From a virus, in the UHGV virus genome UHGV-1687067: 17,335 bases of DNA; one strand, written 5' to 3'. Of the stretch, positions 1,228 through 16,686 are shown piece by piece. A program made the position numbers and the translations under genes. The notes below the pieces were generated by a model, which saw only the letters and a list, made by a program, of their open reading frames with translations, was not told where the DNA came from and made no database searches. The number at the start of each line of letters is the position of its first letter. Within the stretch, counting starts at the first letter, position 1.

Positions 1228-1250
1228 AGTTTACAAAATGGCGTCATTGC

Positions 1251-1264
1251 GTGATGTGGATCAC
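1251..1264. promoter_or_regulatory. Inverted repeat GTGAT-GTGG-ATCAC (operator-like site, copy 1)
   Basis: 5-bp arms are exact reverse complements with 4-bp spacer; same half-sites recur at 7222-7235. Confidence 0.3.
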
Positions 1265-1282
1265 ATAATGGCGCTTTTCGTC

Positions 1283-1310
1283 TTGTTATGACGTATCCAT
1301 TTTGTATACT
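1283..1310 (+). promoter_or_regulatory. Candidate sigma70-type promoter (TTGTTA-16 nt-TATACT) upstream of the ninF-like/ninG/rusA/Q cluster
   Basis: -35-like TTGTTA (1283-1288) and -10-like TATACT (1305-1310), 16-nt spacer, in the 159-bp gap between methyltransferase and next gene. Hexamer matching only. Confidence 0.25.
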
Positions 1311-1386
1311 TCAAGCAAACAAAATGCTCTTTAAAAATCCGGCAGCGCTGAAATGCGTAGAAATCACCTGAAAAGGAGAGAGCATT

Positions 1387-3956: not shown

Positions 3957-4254
3957 AGACCTGCATTTGAATCTGAAAGGGGAATATTTCCACGCTATCC
4001 GGGCGGGAAAGAAGGTGGAGGAATACCGGCTTTATAATGACTATTGGCGTAAACGTCTGGAAGGGCGGGAATATGAGCGCCTGATTATTAAATGGGGATA
4101 CCCTGCCAACCACGAAAAACACAGGATTATTAACCTTCCTTATTTTGGGTACGAAGTGAAAACTATCACACATCCATTATTCGGCACTGATCCGGTGAGA
4201 GTATTCGCAATTAAATGTGATGTGAATTGGATGTTAAGGTGGGTCGAGCAATGA
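3946..4254 (+). CDS. ASCH/PUA-like domain protein (putative)
   Basis: From ATG 3946: MASKDLHLNLKGEYFHAIRAGKKVEEYRLYNDYW... resembles the ASCH N-terminal signature (xLxxKxEYFxxIxxGxKxxExR), recalled from memory. Track start 3910 is TTG and rejected. Confidence 0.4.
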   Translation: MASKDLHLNLKGEYFHAIRAGKKVEEYRLYNDYWRKRLEGREYERLIIKWGYPANHEKHRIINLPYFGYEVKTITHPLFGTDPVRVFAIKCDVNWMLRWVEQ

Positions 4255-6026: not shown

Positions 6027-6268
6027 AAGTGAATTATTTCAGGGCAAAAGACAAGGCAACAGGAAAGCGGGTGGCTATCCTGGTTAATGAAGCAAATTAT
6101 ATGTTTGTTCTCCAGCCGTGGTGCATAGCTGACTATAACGATGATTATCGCCGTCACGCTGCGCGGCGGGCGGTCGGGATGAAAGGCTGGCAGCCTCGCG
6201 ACATGCTTAATTACTGCGACTGGAATCTGATAGCAAAATACACGGTCGATTATAAAGGGGTTTTCTGA
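6023..6268 (+). CDS. Hypothetical protein (81 aa)
   Basis: ATGA overlap at 6023-6026. Confidence 0.45.
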   Translation: MKVNYFRAKDKATGKRVAILVNEANYMFVLQPWCIADYNDDYRRHAARRAVGMKGWQPRDMLNYCDWNLIAKYTVDYKGVF

Positions 6269-7000: not shown

Positions 7001-7219
7001 ATGATTTTAACGTGTAACGAATCGAAATTGGGCTGTTTTGAGGAAGGCGTACAGTACACGGCTGAAAAACCGATGGGATTGTCTCCTAAATTTCCGTTTA
7101 TCGTCGTGACTGACACTTACGGTCACTTATGGTATGCAGGGCCGCTAGGCGGTATTGGTCGTTATGTTGTCCGTAGTTCGGATGGGGCGATGAAGGTTAC
7201 TTTTACGGAAGAAACGTAA
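7001..7219 (+). CDS. Small paralog-family protein D (72 aa)
   Basis: ATG 7001 (MILTCNESKLGCFEEGVQY...VVTDTYGHLWYAG); in-frame ATG 6995 also possible. Track start 6926 is a long extension in another gene's region and is rejected. Confidence 0.4.
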   Translation: MILTCNESKLGCFEEGVQYTAEKPMGLSPKFPFIVVTDTYGHLWYAGPLGGIGRYVVRSSDGAMKVTFTEET

Positions 7220-7220
7220 A

Positions 7221-7236
7221 TGTGATCTGTATCACA
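7221..7236. promoter_or_regulatory. Palindromic site TGTGAT-CTGT-ATCACA; fits CRP consensus half-sites TGTGA-N6-TCACA (operator-like site, copy 2)
   Basis: Exact 6-bp inverted arms around a 4-bp spacer, 2 nt after the stop at 7219, in a 98-bp intergenic gap. CRP consensus is textbook knowledge; binding is not demonstrated. Confidence 0.35.
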
Positions 7237-7245
7237 AGGTTTACG

Positions 7246-7282
7246 AAATGGCATTGTTTCGGCAGTGCCATTTTGTTATAAA
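7246..7282 (+). promoter_or_regulatory. Hairpin (AAATGGCATTG / CAGTGCCATTT) followed by T-rich run, overlapping a promoter-like TTGTTT-17 nt-TATAAA
   Basis: About 11-bp stem with one G-U wobble and 6-nt loop at 7246-7273, then TTTTGTT. TATAAA at 7277-7282 with TTGTTT 17 nt upstream. Could be terminator, attenuator or promoter. Confidence 0.25.
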
Positions 7283-7317
7283 GAAGCTGAAGAGAGAACG
7301 ATGCGGAGGGTAGAAAA

Positions 7318-7596
7318 ATGAAACGCTGGATTAACAAAGAAGTCGAATCTCGCTTAAACGCATTTTGGGAGATGGTGGAGAAAGAAGACCCAGCACACGC
7401 TGCAAGCCCTTACCTGAACAACATCGAATATCACTACATTGCAGCAAACAACGCGGAGTTCGAAGAAGAAGGTGGAGCCGACAAGTTCGCACAAAGCAAC
7501 GCATTCAACAACGCAAACGAAATGATGATGGCAGTCATCGAACAGGCAGAGGAAGACTACGAATGCAAATCACTTGAATTCGCACGTATGGCATAA
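7318..7596 (+). CDS. Hypothetical acidic protein (92 aa)
   Basis: ATG 7318 with GGAGGG upstream; first gene after the 98-bp regulatory gap. Net charge about -11 (19 Asp/Glu vs 8 Lys/Arg). Confidence 0.5.
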   Translation: MKRWINKEVESRLNAFWEMVEKEDPAHAASPYLNNIEYHYIAANNAEFEEEGGADKFAQSNAFNNANEMMMAVIEQAEEDYECKSLEFARMA

Positions 7597-7606
7597 GGGG
7601 GAAACC

Positions 7607-7747
7607 ATGAACGCTAACGCTAAATATCCGGCCTGGGTTTTCGAACTGTACGCAAGATACTTTGAATTACTGGCACAAGGTGAAGAAGCATTAAGCATTG
7701 ACGAGTACGCGGAGTGCTTAGGGTTTAAAGGAGACGAAGAAGCATAA
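7607..7747 (+). CDS. Hypothetical small acidic protein (46 aa)
   Basis: ATG 7607 with AAGGGGG upstream; MNANAKYPAWVFELYARYFELLAQGEEALSIDEYAECLGFKGDEEA. Not in ORF track (under 60 aa). Confidence 0.35.
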   Translation: MNANAKYPAWVFELYARYFELLAQGEEALSIDEYAECLGFKGDEEA

Positions 7748-7752
7748 AACAC

Positions 7753-7768
7753 GGGGCCGGATGGCCCC
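7753..7768 (+). other. GC-rich hairpin GGGGCC-GGAT-GGCCCC in intergenic gap
   Basis: Perfect 6-bp GC stem with 4-nt loop between genes ending 7747 and starting 7791; no following U-tract, so more likely a stability or processing element than a terminator. Confidence 0.3.
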
Positions 7769-7790
7769 ATCAAATCAGAAGGGTGTAATC

Positions 7791-8090
7791 ATGAAAAGCG
7801 CTAAATTTATTGCTTGCTGTTTTGTTGAAGTTCCTAACGATGATGTTTTCTGTAATTATGAATTTAAAGACAGCTTAGGCAGATCTCATGTTGTTGTTGG
7901 TAAGCGCGGCGACTGGTTATATATCACTGATGGAGACAGGATCTTCACTAAAAACCAGTTGTTAATAATAAAGGCAGAAAATGATGAAATACCAGTAGGT
8001 AATATGGGGATTATGAATTATCACGCTGGTTTATTGTTAAAGCACGATACGGTAAACAAAGCGCGTAGCTTACCTGGTGCGGAGTTTTAA
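7791..8090 (+). CDS. Hypothetical protein (99 aa)
   Basis: Internal ATG 7791 (MKSAKFIACCF...) with AGAAGGGTG upstream; track start 7761 rejected. Confidence 0.45.
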   Translation: MKSAKFIACCFVEVPNDDVFCNYEFKDSLGRSHVVVGKRGDWLYITDGDRIFTKNQLLIIKAENDEIPVGNMGIMNYHAGLLLKHDTVNKARSLPGAEF

Positions 8091-8093
8091 TTT

Positions 8094-8348
8094 ATGGAAA
8101 TAATCAAAATATGGCGCGGCAACAGTAAGGCTGACGGTGAGTTTTGCCGCGTCGTTCAATTCGTAAATTATGGTAGGTTTTACGAGCTACCTTATGACAA
8201 AAGGAAAGATGATTTCTATTTAAGCGAGTCAATCCCGGTGCACAGAAAAATAAAGGCGCTTAGGGGGTTATTGCGAAGTGGTTTTTATTCTTGCCCTAAC
8301 CCATTAAACAATCCTGAACTGGTAGCTATTTTTTACGAAGGAGAATAG
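8094..8348 (+). CDS. Hypothetical protein (84 aa)
   Basis: ATG 8094 with GGAG upstream, 3 nt after upstream stop. Confidence 0.45.
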   Translation: MEIIKIWRGNSKADGEFCRVVQFVNYGRFYELPYDKRKDDFYLSESIPVHRKIKALRGLLRSGFYSCPNPLNNPELVAIFYEGE

Positions 8349-8351
8349 ACA

Positions 8352-8675
8352 ATGTCTAAATTTATCAGCGTTAAAGTTTTCCGTGGCACTTTACCGAACG
8401 AAGAAAGATTAGGACAATTTGCCGGGCAACCTAGTGCATGTTTCCGTGTAGCCACTGAAGACGATGCGCATGTTAAATGCTTCCACGTATCGGAACCGCC
8501 TTTTAATGCAGACCATCTTGAAGACCCGGATAGAATTAAAAGCCTAGTTTTTGCCTATCTGATGTTCCAGGGTATCGCTAATATGGAAGTGGAATTGCTT
8601 GGCGCTGAACTGGCGGCAGAATACAAAGTGACTGAAGGCGAAAACGGAGGGGTGGAAATTGAGCGCATCAAATAA
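8352..8675 (+). CDS. Hypothetical protein (107 aa)
   Basis: ATG 8352 with AAGGAGAA upstream. Confidence 0.5.
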   Translation: MSKFISVKVFRGTLPNEERLGQFAGQPSACFRVATEDDAHVKCFHVSEPPFNADHLEDPDRIKSLVFAYLMFQGIANMEVELLGAELAAEYKVTEGENGGVEIERIK

Positions 8676-8910
8676 ACCTTACAAGATCCGGTGTAAAGGC
8701 GAATACCCTGGGTTTACGATTGGTTGCGAATACCTGGGCCACATTGGGTACGGCCCTTTCGGTGAGTTAGGGATGAATACGATGGACGACGACGGCGACA
8801 GCAGGACGCTTGATCTTGATTCTGATGATTTCGAATACATCCCTCCAGTTACTTACCGTGCCGTTGATGATTTCCTGGCTGAACATGAAGACGAGGGCGA
8901 TGATGATTGA
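8659..8910 (+). CDS. Hypothetical protein with strongly acidic C-terminus (83 aa), probable TTG start
   Basis: No in-frame ATG or GTG near the 5' end; TTG 8659 has GGAGGGG about 5 nt upstream. C-terminal half is Asp/Glu-rich (DDDGDSRTLDLDSDDFEY...EHEDEGDDD). Confidence 0.4.
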   Translation: MSASNKPYKIRCKGEYPGFTIGCEYLGHIGYGPFGELGMNTMDDDGDSRTLDLDSDDFEYIPPVTYRAVDDFLAEHEDEGDDD

Positions 8911-9097
8911 ATGCCTTATAGCTGTGATTGTTTTGCTTTATATCGCTGGCGCTATCCTGATGTCTTGTTTTATTAAGTTTAGCGGAGCTGAACCTGGCGG
9001 CCTTGAGATTCCTTTTTGGCCTGTGACTGTGTTTATCGCTTTCTTCGACGCTACGGCAGGGCAGATCAATCGAGCTATTAAGGAGCGCAAGAAATGA
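8903..9097 (+). CDS. Small membrane protein (about 64 aa, two predicted hydrophobic helices)
   Basis: ATG 8900 or 8903 in frame of track ORF 8810..9097. Translation MIECLIAVIVLLYIAGAILMSCF...FWPVTVFIAFF is hydrophobic; track N-terminal extension rejected. Confidence 0.4.
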   Translation: MIECLIAVIVLLYIAGAILMSCFIKFSGAEPGGLEIPFWPVTVFIAFFDATAGQINRAIKERKK

Positions 9098-9273
9098 TTG
9101 AAGATGGGGTGTACGCAACAGTAGTAGACGGGCTGTTTTACCGCGTAGAAGGTGATGATATTCGCATCCGCGTTGGCGGTGGTGAGTGGGTAGCGCCAAT
9201 CATTAAGACGACGCGAGAAACAATTAAAATATTTCTTGATGCTGGTGAACTGGTGAGGGTTAGCGACCTATGA
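9094..9273 (+). CDS. Hypothetical small protein (59 aa), paralog of the next gene
   Basis: ATG 9094 with AAGGAG upstream, overlaps upstream stop (ATGA). MIEDGVYATVVDGLFYRVEGDDIRIRVGG... Not in ORF track. Confidence 0.4.
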   Translation: MIEDGVYATVVDGLFYRVEGDDIRIRVGGGEWVAPIIKTTRETIKIFLDAGELVRVSDL

Positions 9274-9446
9274 ACGAGATCGAAGATGGTATCTATTTGC
9301 ATAAGGTATTTAACATCGTCTATTTACTTAAAGGTAATAAGGTGATGATAAGACCTGATGACGATCCACATTGGGAATCAAGCGACATGGATCGGCGGCA
9401 TATGCAAATGTTGGTTGATAACGGCCTGATATATAGAAAGCCGTAA
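9270..9446 (+). CDS. Hypothetical small protein (58 aa), paralog of the previous gene
   Basis: ATGA overlap at 9270-9273, GTGAGGG upstream. MNEIEDGIYLHKVFNIVYLLKGNKVMIRPDDD... shares the N-terminal (I)EDG(V/I)Y motif. Not in ORF track. Confidence 0.4.
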   Translation: MNEIEDGIYLHKVFNIVYLLKGNKVMIRPDDDPHWESSDMDRRHMQMLVDNGLIYRKP

Positions 9447-9453
9447 GCCGTAT

Positions 9454-9482
9454 TTGTAGGGCGTAAACAAACAGATTAAAAT
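9454..9482 (+). promoter_or_regulatory. Candidate late promoter (PR'-like): TTGTAG-17 nt-TAAAAT
   Basis: Hexamers with 17-nt spacer in the gap upstream of the holin, about 30 nt before an intrinsic terminator, as in the lambda PR'-tR' arrangement. Weak -35; inference only. Confidence 0.3.
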
Positions 9483-9510
9483 ATTTCCTAACAATGCGAA
9501 ATTGTAATTA

Positions 9511-9532
9511 CCCGGCCCCGCGCCGGGTTTTT
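9511..9532 (+). terminator. Rho-independent terminator (tR'-like) just upstream of the lysis cassette
   Basis: CCCGGC-cccgc-GCCGGG (6-bp GC stem, 5-nt loop) followed by TTTTT, about 20 nt before the holin SD (GGAGG at 9541-9545). Confidence 0.6.
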
Positions 9533-9552
9533 GCTTTGTTGGAGGAAAATCT

Positions 9553-10245: not shown

Positions 10246-10703
10246 AGACGTTAATCATCGCCGTTGTTGTTTGCATTATTGCCGGGCTTACCGCCGTAAC
10301 GTGTTATTACCAGGGTGAGGCGGCAAGGTTACAGGAAGAAGTCACGGTGACGAAAGGCGCACTAAAAACAGCAAGTAACACTATCCAGCAGATGAAGGAG
10401 CGAAACGCCGAACTGTCAAAACTTGATAAGAGGTATCACGATGAGATTAAAGCTATCAGATCTGACATTGCCGATCTTCGCGCTGGCATTGATAGCGGTG
10501 CTATCAGGTTGCACGTCAACGCCGAGCCAGTGTACGTGCACGACGCCACCGGAACCGCCAGCAGCATTAATGGAGCCACCTGTAGACTTACTGCCAGTGC
10601 TCAATCAAATTATCTATCCCTCAGAGAACAACTAAAAGAGAAAGACGCGAAGATCACCGGATTACAGGACTACATCAAAACGCAGTGCATACGCAAAGAA
10701 TAA
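10233..10703 (+). CDS. Rz-like i-spanin
   Basis: N-terminal TM helix ([16 protein letters not shown]), coiled-coil-like middle, and RLHV...YLSLREQL...QCIRKE matching lambda Rz (RRLHIKA...YFTLRERL...EQCR). Overlaps endolysin 3' end. Confidence 0.75.
10441..10635 (+). CDS. Rz1-like o-spanin lipoprotein, embedded in +1 frame of Rz
   Basis: ATG 10441 with AGAGG about 8 nt upstream. [24 protein letters not shown] has lipobox LSGC; short Pro-rich mature region ([19 protein letters not shown]). Embedded architecture is classic. Confidence 0.7.
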   Translation: MRLKLSDLTLPIFALALIAVLSGCTSTPSQCTCTTPPEPPAALMEPPVDLLPVLNQIIYPSENN

Positions 10704-10858
10704 CAGCGCGCGGACGTGTCGCCGTTTCCGCCAGCCAGCCATAACCGGGCCAATCCTTCCCGCGAGCGACGGCGGAATAGTCAAAAACACGTAATACCGG
10801 ATCAACAGTCCCATTAACAGGTCAGGCGCTACCTGGGTAGAAGAAAGCGCCATTCACC

Positions 10859-10872
10859 AATTTTATAAAATT
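10859..10872. promoter_or_regulatory. Perfect 14-bp AT palindrome AATTTTATAAAATT in the 279-bp gap after Rz
   Basis: Self-complementary 14-mer in the long non-coding gap between Rz and the next gene; could be a promoter -10 region or protein-binding site. Confidence 0.2.
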
Positions 10873-11525: not shown

Positions 11526-11527
11526 TT

Positions 11528-11617
11528 ATGATTGCGTCAATACTAACTTTCGTCGGCGGGATGGCGGCTGGATTCATCCTTTGCCTGTTTCTGGTAGTTA
11601 TGTCTATGCGAGACTGA
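11528..11617 (+). CDS. Micro-ORF 1: hydrophobic peptide, 29 aa (MIASILTFVGGMAAGFILCLFLVVMSMRD)
   Basis: ATG 2 nt after upstream stop, GAGG upstream; single predicted TM helix. Missed by ORF track (under 60 aa). Confidence 0.35.
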   Translation: MIASILTFVGGMAAGFILCLFLVVMSMRD

Positions 11618-11619
11618 TT

Positions 11620-11682
11620 ATGGACGCTTATTTATTTATCGGAATGGCGGCGGCTGTAATATTGTTTTTGTTGTGGAAGTAA
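11620..11682 (+). CDS. Micro-ORF 2: hydrophobic peptide, 20 aa (MDAYLFIGMAAAVILFLLWK)
   Basis: ATG 11620; N-terminus MDAY shared with micro-ORF 3; the same DNA context TGATTATGGACGCTTA precedes both. Confidence 0.35.
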   Translation: MDAYLFIGMAAAVILFLLWK

Positions 11683-11687
11683 TGATT

Positions 11688-11792
11688 ATGGACGCTTACA
11701 TCATTGCCGGATTAATCGGCGTTTCTGTGTTTCTTGCTGGTTCTATTATAGTTGCGCTGATAAACGTATATATCAAGTATTTGGTGGGGTGA
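11688..11792 (+). CDS. Micro-ORF 3: hydrophobic peptide, 34 aa (MDAYIIAGLIGVSVFLAGSIIVALINVYIKYLVG)
   Basis: ATG 11688 (in-frame ATG 11682 overlaps upstream TAA); paralog of micro-ORF 2. Confidence 0.35.
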   Translation: MDAYIIAGLIGVSVFLAGSIIVALINVYIKYLVG

Positions 11793-11797
11793 AAAAT

Positions 11798-11872
11798 ATG
11801 ATTGACCCGCTAATTATCCTTTCTGCCTGCGTCGCTGTATGGCTGGCGATCATGATATTCATTGAAAGCTGA
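11798..11872 (+). CDS. Micro-ORF 4: hydrophobic peptide, 24 aa (MIDPLIILSACVAVWLAIMIFIES)
   Basis: ATG 11798 with GGTGGGG upstream. Confidence 0.35.
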   Translation: MIDPLIILSACVAVWLAIMIFIES

Positions 11873-11883
11873 AGGTATCCACA

Positions 11884-11964
11884 ATGAACGCATACGAAAT
11901 GCTATTGCTGGTGGCTGTTATTACAGTTATTGCCGTAGATGTTTATCGGGAGTTTAAAAAATGA
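11884..11964 (+). CDS. Micro-ORF 5: hydrophobic peptide, 26 aa (MNAYEMLLLVAVITVIAVDVYREFKK)
   Basis: ATG 11884 with AAGG upstream; stop overlaps next start. Confidence 0.35.
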   Translation: MNAYEMLLLVAVITVIAVDVYREFKK

Positions 11965-12029
11965 AATGGCTTGATTTCTTTTTCCTGATCGTTGCGATTG
12001 TTCTCACTATGACCGCGCTTGCTCAATAG
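11961..12029 (+). CDS. Micro-ORF 6: hydrophobic peptide, 22 aa (MKWLDFFFLIVAIVLTMTALAQ)
   Basis: ATG 11961 overlapping upstream TGA; GGGAG upstream. Confidence 0.35.
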   Translation: MKWLDFFFLIVAIVLTMTALAQ

Positions 12030-12037
12030 GTGAAAGC

Positions 12038-12112
12038 ATGAACGCTATTGATATTATGTTGATCGTGTGTACCGTTGCATTAGTTATTATTGGGGTGATT
12101 ATCAATGTCTGA
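12038..12112 (+). CDS. Micro-ORF 7: hydrophobic peptide, 24 aa (MNAIDIMLIVCTVALVIIGVIINV)
   Basis: ATG 12038 with AGGTGA upstream. Confidence 0.35.
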   Translation: MNAIDIMLIVCTVALVIIGVIINV

Positions 12113-12173
12113 TGGTGATTTCTTAATCATGGCTATATGCACGCTGTTAACTGTTATTGTTTTCTTCGCGTAA
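12105..12173 (+). CDS. Micro-ORF 8: hydrophobic peptide, 22 aa (MSDGDFLIMAICTLLTVIVFFA)
   Basis: ATG 12105 overlapping micro-ORF 7 by 8 nt, GGGGTGA upstream; alternative start ATG 12129. Confidence 0.3.
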   Translation: MSDGDFLIMAICTLLTVIVFFA

Positions 12174-12182
12174 AGGTAAACA

Positions 12183-12266
12183 ATGAAAGAATTATTCGAT
12201 TGGTTGGAAGTATTAACATACTGTGCAAGTTTTGTTGCTTGCGTATATATCATCAATAAATATTGA
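12183..12266 (+). CDS. Micro-ORF 9: hydrophobic peptide, 27 aa (MKELFDWLEVLTYCASFVACVYIINKY)
   Basis: ATG 12183 with AAGG upstream; ends 10 nt before the terS start. Confidence 0.35.
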   Translation: MKELFDWLEVLTYCASFVACVYIINKY

Positions 12267-12276
12267 GAGGTGAATT

Positions 12277-12792: not shown

Positions 12793-14281
12793 CAGAGAGG
12801 TTCTAAGGGGGTTGTGTGTTAAAGGTTGTGCTCCCAAAGACATATCAGCACCTTTGTTTTTTAGTTCCTACTTTTATAAGCAACAGGTTGGCAAGGACTT
12901 TTTGGTTGGGCGTCATCACAGAATAATTGCCGATACGCTACAACGAGTTATTAATGGTGAAATCACCAGGTTGATAATCAACATCCCACCGGGCTATGGC
13001 AAAACAATGATTGCCACAATTCACATGATGGCCCGCTGCCTCGCAATAGAACCCCGCACCAGATTCCTGCATGTATCGTATTCACACGGACTCGCCTTGC
13101 TTAATTCCTCAGAGACAAGAAACATAATCACGATGCCGCAATATCAGGAATTGTGGCCTATGCAAATGCGCAACGATTCGAACGCGAAAAACCTGTGGTG
13201 GACCACTCAGGGTGGCGGCGTGTATGCGACGTCATCGCTTGGACAGGTGACAGGGTTCCGCGCCGGGTACATGGAACCTGGGTTTAACGGCGCAATGATT
13301 ATTGATGACCCCCTGAAACCAGCTGACGCTTATTCTGATGTGGTGCGAAAGCAGGTTAATACCAATTACAACGACACGCTTTCTTCGCGCCTGGCTGTGC
13401 AAACAACGCCAGTGATCGTCATCATGCAGCGTATCCACTACGATGATTTATCCGGCTACCTGTTACGTGGCGGTAGTGGTGAGAAATGGCATCACCTTTG
13501 CCTGCCAGTGAAGATCGACAACAGTCTTGACTATTGGGATCTGTACCCGGAAAACAAATTCGCTATTCCTGTTCCTCACAACCTGCCGGATGGCTGGCTA
13601 TGGTTGCATAAGCATAGTGATAAAGATGAATCAACTCTTAAATCACATCGCCGAACATTCGAAGCTCAATATATGCAGTGTCCGCGCAAGTTCGATCAAG
13701 AGGGCGCATTGTGGACTGAAGCGATGATAACCGCCGCGCACAGGATGCAGATAACGCAGGAGAAAATTCGCACGGTGATAGCCATCGACCCGGCAACAAC
13801 ATCATCTGATGAGTCGGACGAAACCGGGATCGTGGCATGTTCCGCTTATGGTGGCGGCAAGTACGCTCAGTATTCTGTAGACGGTGACTACTCAGGCCGC
13901 ATGTCACCTAACGACTGGGCGCAAGCAGCAATGAACGCCTACAACATCCATGAAGCTGACGCGATGGTTATCGAAACCAACCAGGGTGGTGATATGGCAG
14001 AGGCCACACTACGCAATGCCGGATTCAAAGGCCGCATTGTTAAGGTACACGCAAGCAAAGGTAAATTCGCCCGTGCCGAACCAATATCTGCGCTATATGC
14101 ACAGGGAAGGGTGGCCCACACTGGTGAGTTGTACACGCTGGAAAATCAAATGATGGAATACGTGCCAGCCACCGCTAAAAAATCCCCTGACCGTATGGAC
14201 GCTATGGTATGGGGTATCACCGAATTAAGCCAACCACAGGCGATGGGCCTTATGTTACCTAAGCGTCTGCGCGGATTTTAA
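12767..14281 (+). CDS. Terminase large subunit
   Basis: 504 aa, AAGGAG upstream of ATG 12767; Walker A-like PPGYGKTM in N-terminal ATPase region; overlaps terS by 26 nt; followed by portal candidate. Confidence 0.8.
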   Translation: METATTKIDREVLRGLCVKGCAPKDISAPLFFSSYFYKQQVGKDFLVGRHHRIIADTLQRVINGEITRLIINIPPGYGKTMIATIHMMARCLAIEPRTRFLHVSYSHGLALLNSSETRNIITMPQYQELWPMQMRNDSNAKNLWWTTQGGGVYATSSLGQVTGFRAGYMEPGFNGAMIIDDPLKPADAYSDVVRKQVNTNYNDTLSSRLAVQTTPVIVIMQRIHYDDLSGYLLRGGSGEKWHHLCLPVKIDNSLDYWDLYPENKFAIPVPHNLPDGWLWLHKHSDKDESTLKSHRRTFEAQYMQCPRKFDQEGALWTEAMITAAHRMQITQEKIRTVIAIDPATTSSDESDETGIVACSAYGGGKYAQYSVDGDYSGRMSPNDWAQAAMNAYNIHEADAMVIETNQGGDMAEATLRNAGFKGRIVKVHASKGKFARAEPISALYAQGRVAHTGELYTLENQMMEYVPATAKKSPDRMDAMVWGITELSQPQAMGLMLPKRLRGF

Positions 14282-14285
14282 GTTA

Positions 14286-14299
14286 TTGATTATTATCAA
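14286..14299. promoter_or_regulatory. Inverted repeat TTGAT-TATT-ATCAA in the terL-portal intergenic gap
   Basis: 5-bp exact inverted arms with 4-bp spacer; differs from the GTGAT-N4-ATCAC sites by one base per half-site. Lies in an unusually long (148-bp) gap between terL and the portal gene. Confidence 0.2.
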
Positions 14300-14429
14300 C
14301 TTCGAAAAATTTCCGAAGATGAACAAGAATAATTCTCAATTGGCTACATAAAATCTGCCTCACAATCCCCCGCAAGTTTTTATATTTTTCGCGTAGCAAC
14401 GCGTAAACATGTATTCAGGAGTAAACATT

Positions 14430-15800: not shown

Positions 15801-16686
15801 CACCGAAGACCCGACCATGACAGGGAAGTTAAGGTCTGGTGCTATTAAGCGTTTCAAATCCTGCCTGAAAAAAGTAGCCGATCCATATATCGCCATATTG
15901 GACAGAATCCAATATAGCCTGGCTGTTAATAAGAAATACACCTTTCAGATTTACATGGATGAATTTCACGACATGCTGGAGGACGCAAGCGACATGATTG
16001 ATGAGATATTCGAGTTAACAGACCCGGAAAACTTCTGGTTCTGGCAGAATTACGTGAAGGTGGCCTATCAGCGCGGCACGGCACAGGAATATGCCAACCT
16101 CGCTAACCAGTCTGTCACGTACTCAAGCGCCTACCCTGATGTATCTGCCGTGTTATCAAGCACAACTTACCGCACCCGCCTTGCCCTGGTACGTACCCGT
16201 GTATTTGAGGAAATGCGCGGGCTGACCGCACAGATCAAAAAGGATATGGCAAGAAGATTAACCGAAGGTATGGCACGCGGTTTAAATCCACTGGAAATAG
16301 CGCGCACATTGAATCAGGAGACGCGGTTACCGCTATACAGGTGCAAACGTATTGCCCGAACTGAAATATGCACAGCGTTACGCACAGCGCGTATGGATGA
16401 GGCAGAAGCGGCGACAGAAGAATTTAATCTGCGCACTATGCAAATGCACATTTCGGCATTATCACCGACTACCAGGCTATCGCACGCGCAGCGGCACGGT
16501 AAAACATACACCATAGATGAGCAGCGCGAATGGTGGAGTAGATCCCCTAATTCAATTAACTGCAAATGTAGCACGATTACCGTATTAGTTGACGAAGACG
16601 GTAACATATTAAACGAACGAATATTAGATCGGGCGCAAGAAAACTATAAAGTTGCGCACGCTAAATATGGCGAAGATTGGGAGTAA
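15742..16686 (+). CDS. Head morphogenesis/minor head protein (putative, Mu F / SPP1 gp7-like by position)
   Basis: 314 aa, ATG 15742 with GAGGAA upstream, overlapping the portal 3' end by 59 nt; position after portal is typical for this gene. Starts at 15790 or 15817 also possible. Confidence 0.4.
   Translation: MMNVKKIIRRIPPAAIMPSNTEDPTMTGKLRSGAIKRFKSCLKKVADPYIAILDRIQYSLAVNKKYTFQIYMDEFHDMLEDASDMIDEIFELTDPENFWFWQNYVKVAYQRGTAQEYANLANQSVTYSSAYPDVSAVLSSTTYRTRLALVRTRVFEEMRGLTAQIKKDMARRLTEGMARGLNPLEIARTLNQETRLPLYRCKRIARTEICTALRTARMDEAEAATEEFNLRTMQMHISALSPTTRLSHAQRHGKTYTIDEQREWWSRSPNSINCKCSTITVLVDEDGNILNERILDRAQENYKVAHAKYGEDWE

Follow-up and report, generated by a model that had tools for sequence, protein, structure and literature searches.

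Two copies of an inverted repeat, GTGAT-N4-ATCAC, stand between genes of a 17,335-nucleotide stretch of phage DNA (the window, in what follows), and they raise the question of whether a single DNA-binding regulator acts at both and, if so, whether that regulator comes from the phage or from its host. A preliminary description of the window, drawn from its letters alone, had suggested shared operator-like sites at operon boundaries, read either by host CRP, which would couple phage expression to the carbon status of the host, or by a phage repressor, and had named a related repeat further along as a third site. Our analysis assigns the window to a temperate E. coli phage of the mEpimmI group, with mEp021, mEp010, mEp044, mEp554 and MagusPhagus as relatives. 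Phages of this group are Nus-dependent, non-lambdoid temperate coliphages and are common as E. coli prophages (PMC11893012). Strains with such prophages include M1/5, UMNK88 and O157:H7 LSU61.

Two repeats that fit the CRP consensus

Both repeats were found where they had been placed, TGTGATCTGTATCACA at 7221-7236 (site 2 below) and GTGATGTGGATCAC at 1251-1264 (site 1). Site 2 begins 2 nt past a TAA stop codon (7217-7219), within a 98-nt gap that spans 7220-7317. Site 1 occupies the gap between a stop codon at 1225-1227 and the start of a ninF-like gene at 1387, upstream of the ninF-like/ninG/rusA/Q cluster; the presence there of NinG, RusA and a lambda-type Q (PF03589) is borne out by Pfam.

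A CRP site consists of the pentamers TGTGA and TCACA, 6 bp apart, within a 22-bp site of consensus AAATGTGATCTAGATCACATTT (PMC2859248). Site 2 fits both half-sites, as had been claimed, with 10 of the 10 bases of the core TGTGA-N6-TCACA; over the full 22 bp, the lac site as read from MG1655 scores 15, to be set beside the values for our two sites in Table 1. These matches are counted against the published consensus and are not the output of a calibrated binding model. At the level of sequence, both repeats qualify as CRP DNA sites. Moreover, their recurrence holds up against chance: GTGAT-N4-ATCAC occurs twice in the window where 0.01 occurrences are expected, and none of 200 dinucleotide shuffles reaches two. 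If one mismatch to TGTGA-N6-TCACA is allowed, the window contains three matches against 0.39 expected (one shuffle in 200 reaches three), the third of them at 4155 within an ASCH-like gene. By the same measure mEp021 carries seven boxes against 1.45 expected, a number that none of 100 shuffles reaches, and just one of the seven is clearly within coding sequence; in lambda there are two, both coding. The M1/5 prophage has the same sequence as the window around site 2; 40 kb of it contain four boxes, every one of them in non-coding DNA, which makes up 15% of that stretch.

The third repeat, TTGATTATTATCAA, is indeed present at 14286-14299, but it does not belong to the recurring element. A site like it arises in 9 of 200 shuffles, and the 70-nt insertion that holds it is absent from mEp021 and all seven characterised relatives and occurs in 9 of 44 E. 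coli prophages; given that frequency and an insertion that few relatives have, we do not count it as part of the element. It has no GTGA/TCAC, and we found no -10-like hexamer or promoter at the distance that a Class II site requires. The consensus of the FNR box is TTGAT-N4-ATCAA, to which 14286-14299 is a perfect match. Measured against an FNR site, which would centre at about -41.5 and be kept among relatives, the sequence fits, but conservation and promoter placement fail. The repeat at 14286 is probably fortuitous and unrelated to the boxes. Part of the insertion has a weak (82%) match elsewhere in some E. coli chromosomes.

Two further intervals of the window deserve a remark. Between the lysis genes and terS, 11526-12276 looks like a gap but contains a run of very short open reading frames encoding hydrophobic peptides, two of which start MDAY... 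and lie in a 29-nt direct repeat at 11615/11683. At 7751-7770, immediately upstream of the MKS.KFIACC gene, stands a G+C-rich hairpin, ACGGGGCCGGATGGCCCCAT, which by our reading would be a minus-strand terminator and which is kept at the same gene boundary in mEp021, mEp044 and MagusPhagus.

Table 1. Features at the two sites, in the terL-portal gene interval and at the tail-region boxes of relatives (positions are those of the window)
Feature	Position	Strand	Remarks
15-bp hairpin GGCGUCAUUG(C)GUGAU-GUGG-AUCAC(A)UAAUGGCGCU	1240..1275	+	apex is the site 1 repeat; z -4.1; followed by UUUCGUC
Site 1, 22-bp CRP-like site TTGCGTGATGTGGATCACATAA	1247..1268		core CGTGATGTGGATCACA at 1250-1265; 9/10 core, 14/22 consensus
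Promoter-like TTGTTA-16 nt-TATACT	1283..1310	+	-35-like hexamer starts 17 nt past the 16-bp box
nutR2-like site	1325..1358	+	boxA TGCTCTTTAAAAA at 1325-1337; boxB-like hairpin GCGCUGAAAUGCGU at 1345-1358
Site 2, 22-bp CRP-like site AAATGTGATCTGTATCACAAGG	7218..7239		core 7221-7236; 17/22 against consensus AAATGTGATCTAGATCACATTT
A/T tract at the alpha-CTD position	7243..7251	+	one copy of the over-represented ACAAAATGG; position according to PMC2859248
15-bp hairpin ACGAAAUGGCAUUGU-UUCG-GCAGUGCCAUUUUGU	7243..7276	+	U-rich tail; -19.9 kcal/mol, z -5.1
TTGTTT, -35-like hexamer	7254..7259	+	starts 17 nt past the 16-bp box
TGtTATAAA, extended -10-like element	7274..7282	+	17 nt past the -35-like hexamer
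First gene downstream of site 2	7318..7596	+	92 aa, without a significant family
70-nt insertion, terL-portal gene interval	about 14279-14348		holds TTGATTATTATCAA (14286..14299)
Tail box TGTGATACTGATCTCT-17-TTCACT-17-TATAAA	relatives' tail region	-	centre ~ -60.5
Tail box TGAGAACTTCGTCACA-27-TTCACA-17-TATATA	relatives' tail region	-	centre ~ -70.5; kept in about 20 relatives
Tail box TGTGATCTACGTCACG-19-TTGATA-17-TATATT	relatives' tail region	-	centre ~ -62.5

A shared module with promoter-like geometry

When sites 1 and 2 are aligned, ATCACA is followed in both after 17 nt by TTGTT(A/T), then by CCATTTTGT exactly 32 nt past ATCAC and by a -10-like hexamer, and mEp021 holds a third copy of the module at 16520 with equal spacings. 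A scan of the viral-contig collection IMG/VR with the pattern GTGAT-N4-ATCAC-N32-CCRTTTTGT, which demands a perfect repeat, returned 62 loci, nearly all on mEpimmI-like contigs of ~54 kb, with at most three copies per contig. The loci form three families, which we call M1, M2 (that of site 1) and M3 (that of site 2). Common to all is a 16-bp box (T/C)GTGA-N6-TCACA, separated by 17 nt from a -35-like TTGTnn and, after another 16 or 17 nt, a -10-like TAnAnT or TATAAA.

This layout can be compared with that of lacP1, which reads TGTGAGTTAGCTCACT-17 nt-TTTACA-18 nt-TATGTT in MG1655. Both have a 16-bp box of the TGTGA-N6-TCACA type, 17 bp and then a sub-optimal -35, with the box centred about 60 bp upstream of the start, a predicted start in the phage, and the distance from box to -35, 17 nt in the modules as in lacP1, is thus identical. 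The spacer between -35 and -10 differs, being 18 in lacP1 and 16-17 bp in the phage DNA, so that with predicted starts at ~1317 and ~7289 the predicted box centres fall near -59.5 for site 1 and near -60.5 for site 2. The box of site 2 is nearer to consensus than that of lac, and site 1, unlike lac, is embedded in an RNA hairpin. At Class I promoters, CRP sites centre near -61.5 (or -71.5, -82.5, -92.5) of a sigma-70 promoter and the alpha-CTD docks 18-19 bp from the CRP site's midpoint (PMC2859248). Counted from the predicted -10, the centres of the two phage boxes are 1-2 bp from the -61.5 optimum, and an A/T tract occupies the alpha-CTD position at site 2 (CGAAAT), at site 1 (GCTTTT), in M1 (ACATTT) and in a tail family (ACAAAA).

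The promoter-like hexamers themselves are consensus matches of a kind that shuffled sequence yields at a similar rate. Scored with a crude sigma-70 matrix, TTGTTA-16-TATACT of site 1 ranks highest on the plus strand of the window; the -10-like element of site 2 ranks 102nd, and its promoter is weaker on paper because a T at -7 is absent. The TATAAA/TATATA type is the sole promoter candidate upstream of two isolated leftward genes of mEp021. We also considered site 2 as a Q-dependent late promoter and rejected this, since mEp021 lacks the module and a better, lambda-like candidate stands at 9454-9533. There, a likely Q-dependent late promoter is formed by TTGTAG (9454-9459), 17 nt and TAAAAT (9477-9482), followed by a -10-like AACAAT (9490-9495), a layout like that of lambda PR' (TTGACT-17-TAAATT...AACGAT). 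Downstream of this candidate and upstream of the holin gene, 9510-9528 and the T-run after it make a strong terminator, the equivalent of t5 of mEp021.

A motif that accompanies the modules, ACAAAATGG/CCATTTTGT, is strongly over-represented. Its copies in the window are at 1233-1241, 1297-1305, 7243-7251 and 7268-7276, and those in mEp021 at 6066, 11926, 16566, 37650-37685, 42049 and 43921; the 10-mer TACAAAATGG is present in seven copies in mEp021, where 0.16 would be expected, nearly always between genes. In one orientation the motif abuts -35-like hexamers, in the other it lies directly upstream of -10-like hexamers. It could be a UP-like element, part of a promoter class, the tail of a terminator or a site for a phage protein. 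Readings of CCATTTTGT as a sigma-54 or sigma-32 element were rejected by eye, spacing or key bases being a misfit, and readings of the motif as an IHF or DnaA site were rejected for mismatch.

The same architecture is repeated on the minus strand by the tail-region boxes of relatives (Table 1), upstream of leftward genes that need promoters of their own. One of these boxes, TGTGATCTACGTCACG, is kept in 30 distinct relatives with a variable spacer, and the operon behind it encodes an ANT-domain (antirepressor-like) protein. In mEp021 the strong leftward promoter TTGATA-17-TATATT that heads this operon carries over its -10 a perfect 18-bp palindrome, TACAATATACATATTGTA (43950-43967), which is kept in relatives and resembles the operator of a dedicated repressor.

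How far is the box itself conserved? We re-collected the families through anchors other than the full repeat, nutR2 for M2 (35 distinct sequences) and, for M3, the downstream hairpin and also the left half together with the A-tract, which corrects only in part the bias of retrieval by pattern. Among the 35 M2 sequences GTGA and TCACA show no change at all, whereas the four positions at the centre and the one just ahead of GTGA vary in at least six to nine sequences. TTGT and the -10 block GTATCCATTTTGTATACT are likewise unchanged in all 35, while the five bases upstream of TTGT and the six downstream of it are almost saturated with changes. M1 has a similar pattern of core and spacer, yet its -10 is poorly conserved. 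Some variants, TGTGACATCGTTCACA and GTGACTCGTATCACA for example, retain the CRP core but lack the T or A that completes the GTGAT/ATCAC arms, from which we conclude that the unit under selection is (T/C)GTGA-N6-TCACA and not GTGAT/ATCAC. In M3 the GTGA of the left half is kept at each of the 25 loci collected through the hairpin, or 26 if the window is counted, and the TTGTT of the -35-like hexamer is unchanged in the 25 distinct relatives; the right half is degenerate and non-palindromic in 14 of the 25 (CCCGCA, CTCGCA and others). With this one exception, the pentamers are fixed and the spacer is free in M1, M2, M3 and two tail-region families. At site 1, conservation runs about 10 nt past either end of any CRP site. 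Identity among the relatives is 85-98% at these regions, and since all are close kin, conservation has limited weight. The genes flanking the site 2 module vary between relatives on both sides, and the module is absent from the archetype mEp021 and is thus dispensable; mEp044 and mEp010 have the modules of both sites.

Taken together, these observations make it on balance probable, with modest confidence, that both repeats are host cAMP-CRP sites at Class I activator positions within conserved intergenic cassettes; we infer occupancy by CRP, the transcription starts and whether regulation is positive or negative. At high levels of cAMP, CRP would attach to the box and recruit RNA polymerase through the alpha-CTD at the A/T tract. 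The effect would be to raise transcription from weak internal promoters: at site 1 from one immediately before nutR2, ninF, ninG, rusA and Q, and at site 2 from one ahead of the variable small-gene block 7318-9446.

Hairpins, the nut site and competing readings

The DNA of site 1 also encodes an RNA structure. Its homologue in mEp021 is the predicted terminator t4, and nutR2, a third nut site, lies downstream of the methyltransferase gene (PMC11893012); the GenBank record MH706966 carries t4 as TERM_4. That description of mEp021 names no promoter in the interval from t4 to nutR2, and the term 'CRP' occurs in it 0 times. In the window the nutR2-like site opens ~8 nt past the predicted start of site 1, ahead of ninF-like, ninG, rusA and Q, and is almost unchanged across 35 relatives. 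The first ten bases of its boxA are the same as in the rrn-type TGCTCTTTAA, and a short hairpin with a GAAA-rich loop follows. As site 1 combines a CRP-type box with the DNA of hairpin t4, the cassette would read terminator, CRP-dependent promoter, nut site. Transcripts that begin at site 1 would not have passed nutR1, which would explain the need for a third nut site. A small stem-loop at site 1, in the interval from T-tract to -10, was considered and rejected, the bases around CTTGTT varying without covariation.

Could the repeats act as RNA only, as the apex of t4 and as a small hairpin before a terminator, with GTGAT/ATCAC incidental? We consider this unlikely, although a good deal speaks for the hairpins. 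Both regions fold far better than shuffles (z -4.1 and -5.1) and each hairpin is followed by a U-rich tail, which in the case of 7243-7276 lies partly within the stem. Independent pipelines call terminators at both: TransTerm-type and ARNold annotations in relatives (TERM_4 in mEp021; the homologue of 7243-7276 in mEp044, annotated 'terminator T7 (ARNold)') mark them, whereas our in-house terminator scan called neither. The non-canonical pairs are mostly G.U, three of them in 7243-7276, which ties the hairpins to the plus strand and argues for folding as RNA; single C to U and G to A changes improve pairing. We think that the terminator-like hairpins are probably real and superimposed on, or adjoining, the DNA site. 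Against RNA as the whole explanation, however, the pairing of the site 2 repeat, which alone makes a 6-bp stem without a U-tract, is lost in 14 of 25 distinct relatives whose left half is unchanged, and family M1 has the same box without the extended hairpin. A search for pairing by compensation found no double change in the 35 M2 sequences; some single changes in the M2 stem keep pairing, but four break pairs. Of the transitions in the apical stem that wobble pairing would tolerate, only one outside the CRP core occurs, an A to G at CRP position 14 (a spacer position), which is the sole change in that stem. The U-tract of t4, moreover, is poor in mEp021 and other relatives (CUAUUCACC), and folding leaves unexplained the fixed 17 nt to TTGT and 32 nt to CCRTTTTGT in three families. 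We conclude that the hairpins explain neither the shared box nor its fixed distance to the promoter-like blocks. Searches for known RNA families and tRNAs found none.

As for the identity of the regulator, the idea of a single one survives for the two sites, where paralogous modules, fixed geometry and conservation of the CRP core speak for it, and not for the repeat at 14286; of the two regulators that had been proposed, CRP is the better candidate, and the placement expected of repressor operators was not found. Such operators would cover the core of early promoters beside the repressor gene, as a rule in tandem, whereas both sites are single-copy, at least 17 bp upstream of -35-like hexamers and 8-14 kb from the immunity region. 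Operators of the lambda repressor type were rejected, since we saw no GTGA-N6-TCAC repeats where mEp021 has its pR-like promoter. The boxes might instead be operators of a phage-encoded dimeric protein with CRP-like specificity, either gp14 or an activator of the accessory and internal promoters, which we regard as improbable. Such a protein would account for boxes spread over five to seven regulatory regions, including the only 1-mismatch box in the immunity region of relatives (mEp021 11126), and the ACAAAATGG/CCATTTTGT motif that accompanies the boxes could belong to a phage-specific system. The gp14 protein of mEp021, moreover, has a sub-threshold match to HTH_Crp_2 (E 7e-4; 20 bits, the cutoff being 27) and aligns with the CRP helix-turn-helix, SLRDTIS standing opposite SRETVGR. 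However, its matches stay below curated cutoffs and are common to the MarR, Rrf2 and HTH_36 families, so that they indicate a generic winged helix only, and R180, E181 and R185, the recognition residues of CRP, are unaligned. The boxes are upstream of -35 and not over core promoters. Which positions are conserved, how freely the spacer varies, the favoured T9/C10 and G13/A14 and the frequent combination of a strong with a weak half-site are all what is expected of CRP. Inside E. coli, finally, one would expect CRP to bind a site of perfect consensus, whatever else binds there. We note that gp14 (81 aa, minus strand, 10615-10860 in mEp021) is the product of the first leftward gene of the immunity region, which adjoins the repressor gene, and that a homologue in RefSeq is named a MarR family regulator.

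A further reading grants that CRP can bind and denies that binding has a regulatory role, the matches being due to chance or hitch-hiking and kept through recent divergence. The high identity of the relatives and the statistically unremarkable promoter-like hexamers are in keeping with it. Yet columns beside the conserved blocks are near saturation while the core has zero changes, the module is kept between differing flanking genes, and the boxes are enriched over shuffles and over lambda and restricted to intergenic DNA. We hold this reading to be very unlikely.

Known systems and biological meaning

Control of phage promoters by host CRP has a precedent. In phage T1, cAMP-CRP directly represses the pir, dam and recE promoters, and lysis-lysogeny is tied to carbon supply (PMC6737242, Laganenka et al. 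2019). The two cases differ: in T1 the effect is repression and the sites are unmapped, whereas here the geometry is activation-like, each genome has several boxes and the phages belong to an unrelated group. In mEp021 as described by Negrete-Mendez et al. (2025, PMC11893012), t4 is the counterpart of site 1, and the boxA and boxB downstream of it are at the published location of nutR2.

Multicopy activator sites in phages are also familiar from another setting. The late-activator sites of P2 Ogr and P4 Delta are dyads of the form TGT-N12-ACA near -55. The boxes share with these a partial TGT...ACA dyad, multiple copies and a position upstream of a -35 hexamer that belongs to a weak phage promoter, but here the dyad is TGT-N10-ACA with full CRP pentamers, and it serves early and accessory regions and not late operons. 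No gene for an Ogr-like zinc finger was identified.

More generally, one may ask what a set of such boxes would do for a prophage. Prophages of the mEpimmI group are reported to be non-UV-inducible, and with five to seven putative cAMP-CRP sites per genome (at nutR2/Q, at accessory genes and at the leftward ANT-domain operon) it is conceivable, though we rate it as rather unlikely, that host carbon status, and not SOS, gates lysogenic-conversion genes and entry into the lytic cycle, and that one stretch of DNA at site 1 does double duty, as a CRP site and as the tip of a terminator hairpin. If CRP acts at the boxes at all, site 1 would have to be re-annotated, being more than the simple terminator predicted so far, and one CRP-controlled promoter would feed the late antiterminator Q through a nut site of its own. 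A common prophage group of human-gut E. coli would then sense host cAMP at several promoters, and there would be a route from nutrition to prophage expression, and perhaps to induction, in a group whose lysogens reportedly ignore UV.
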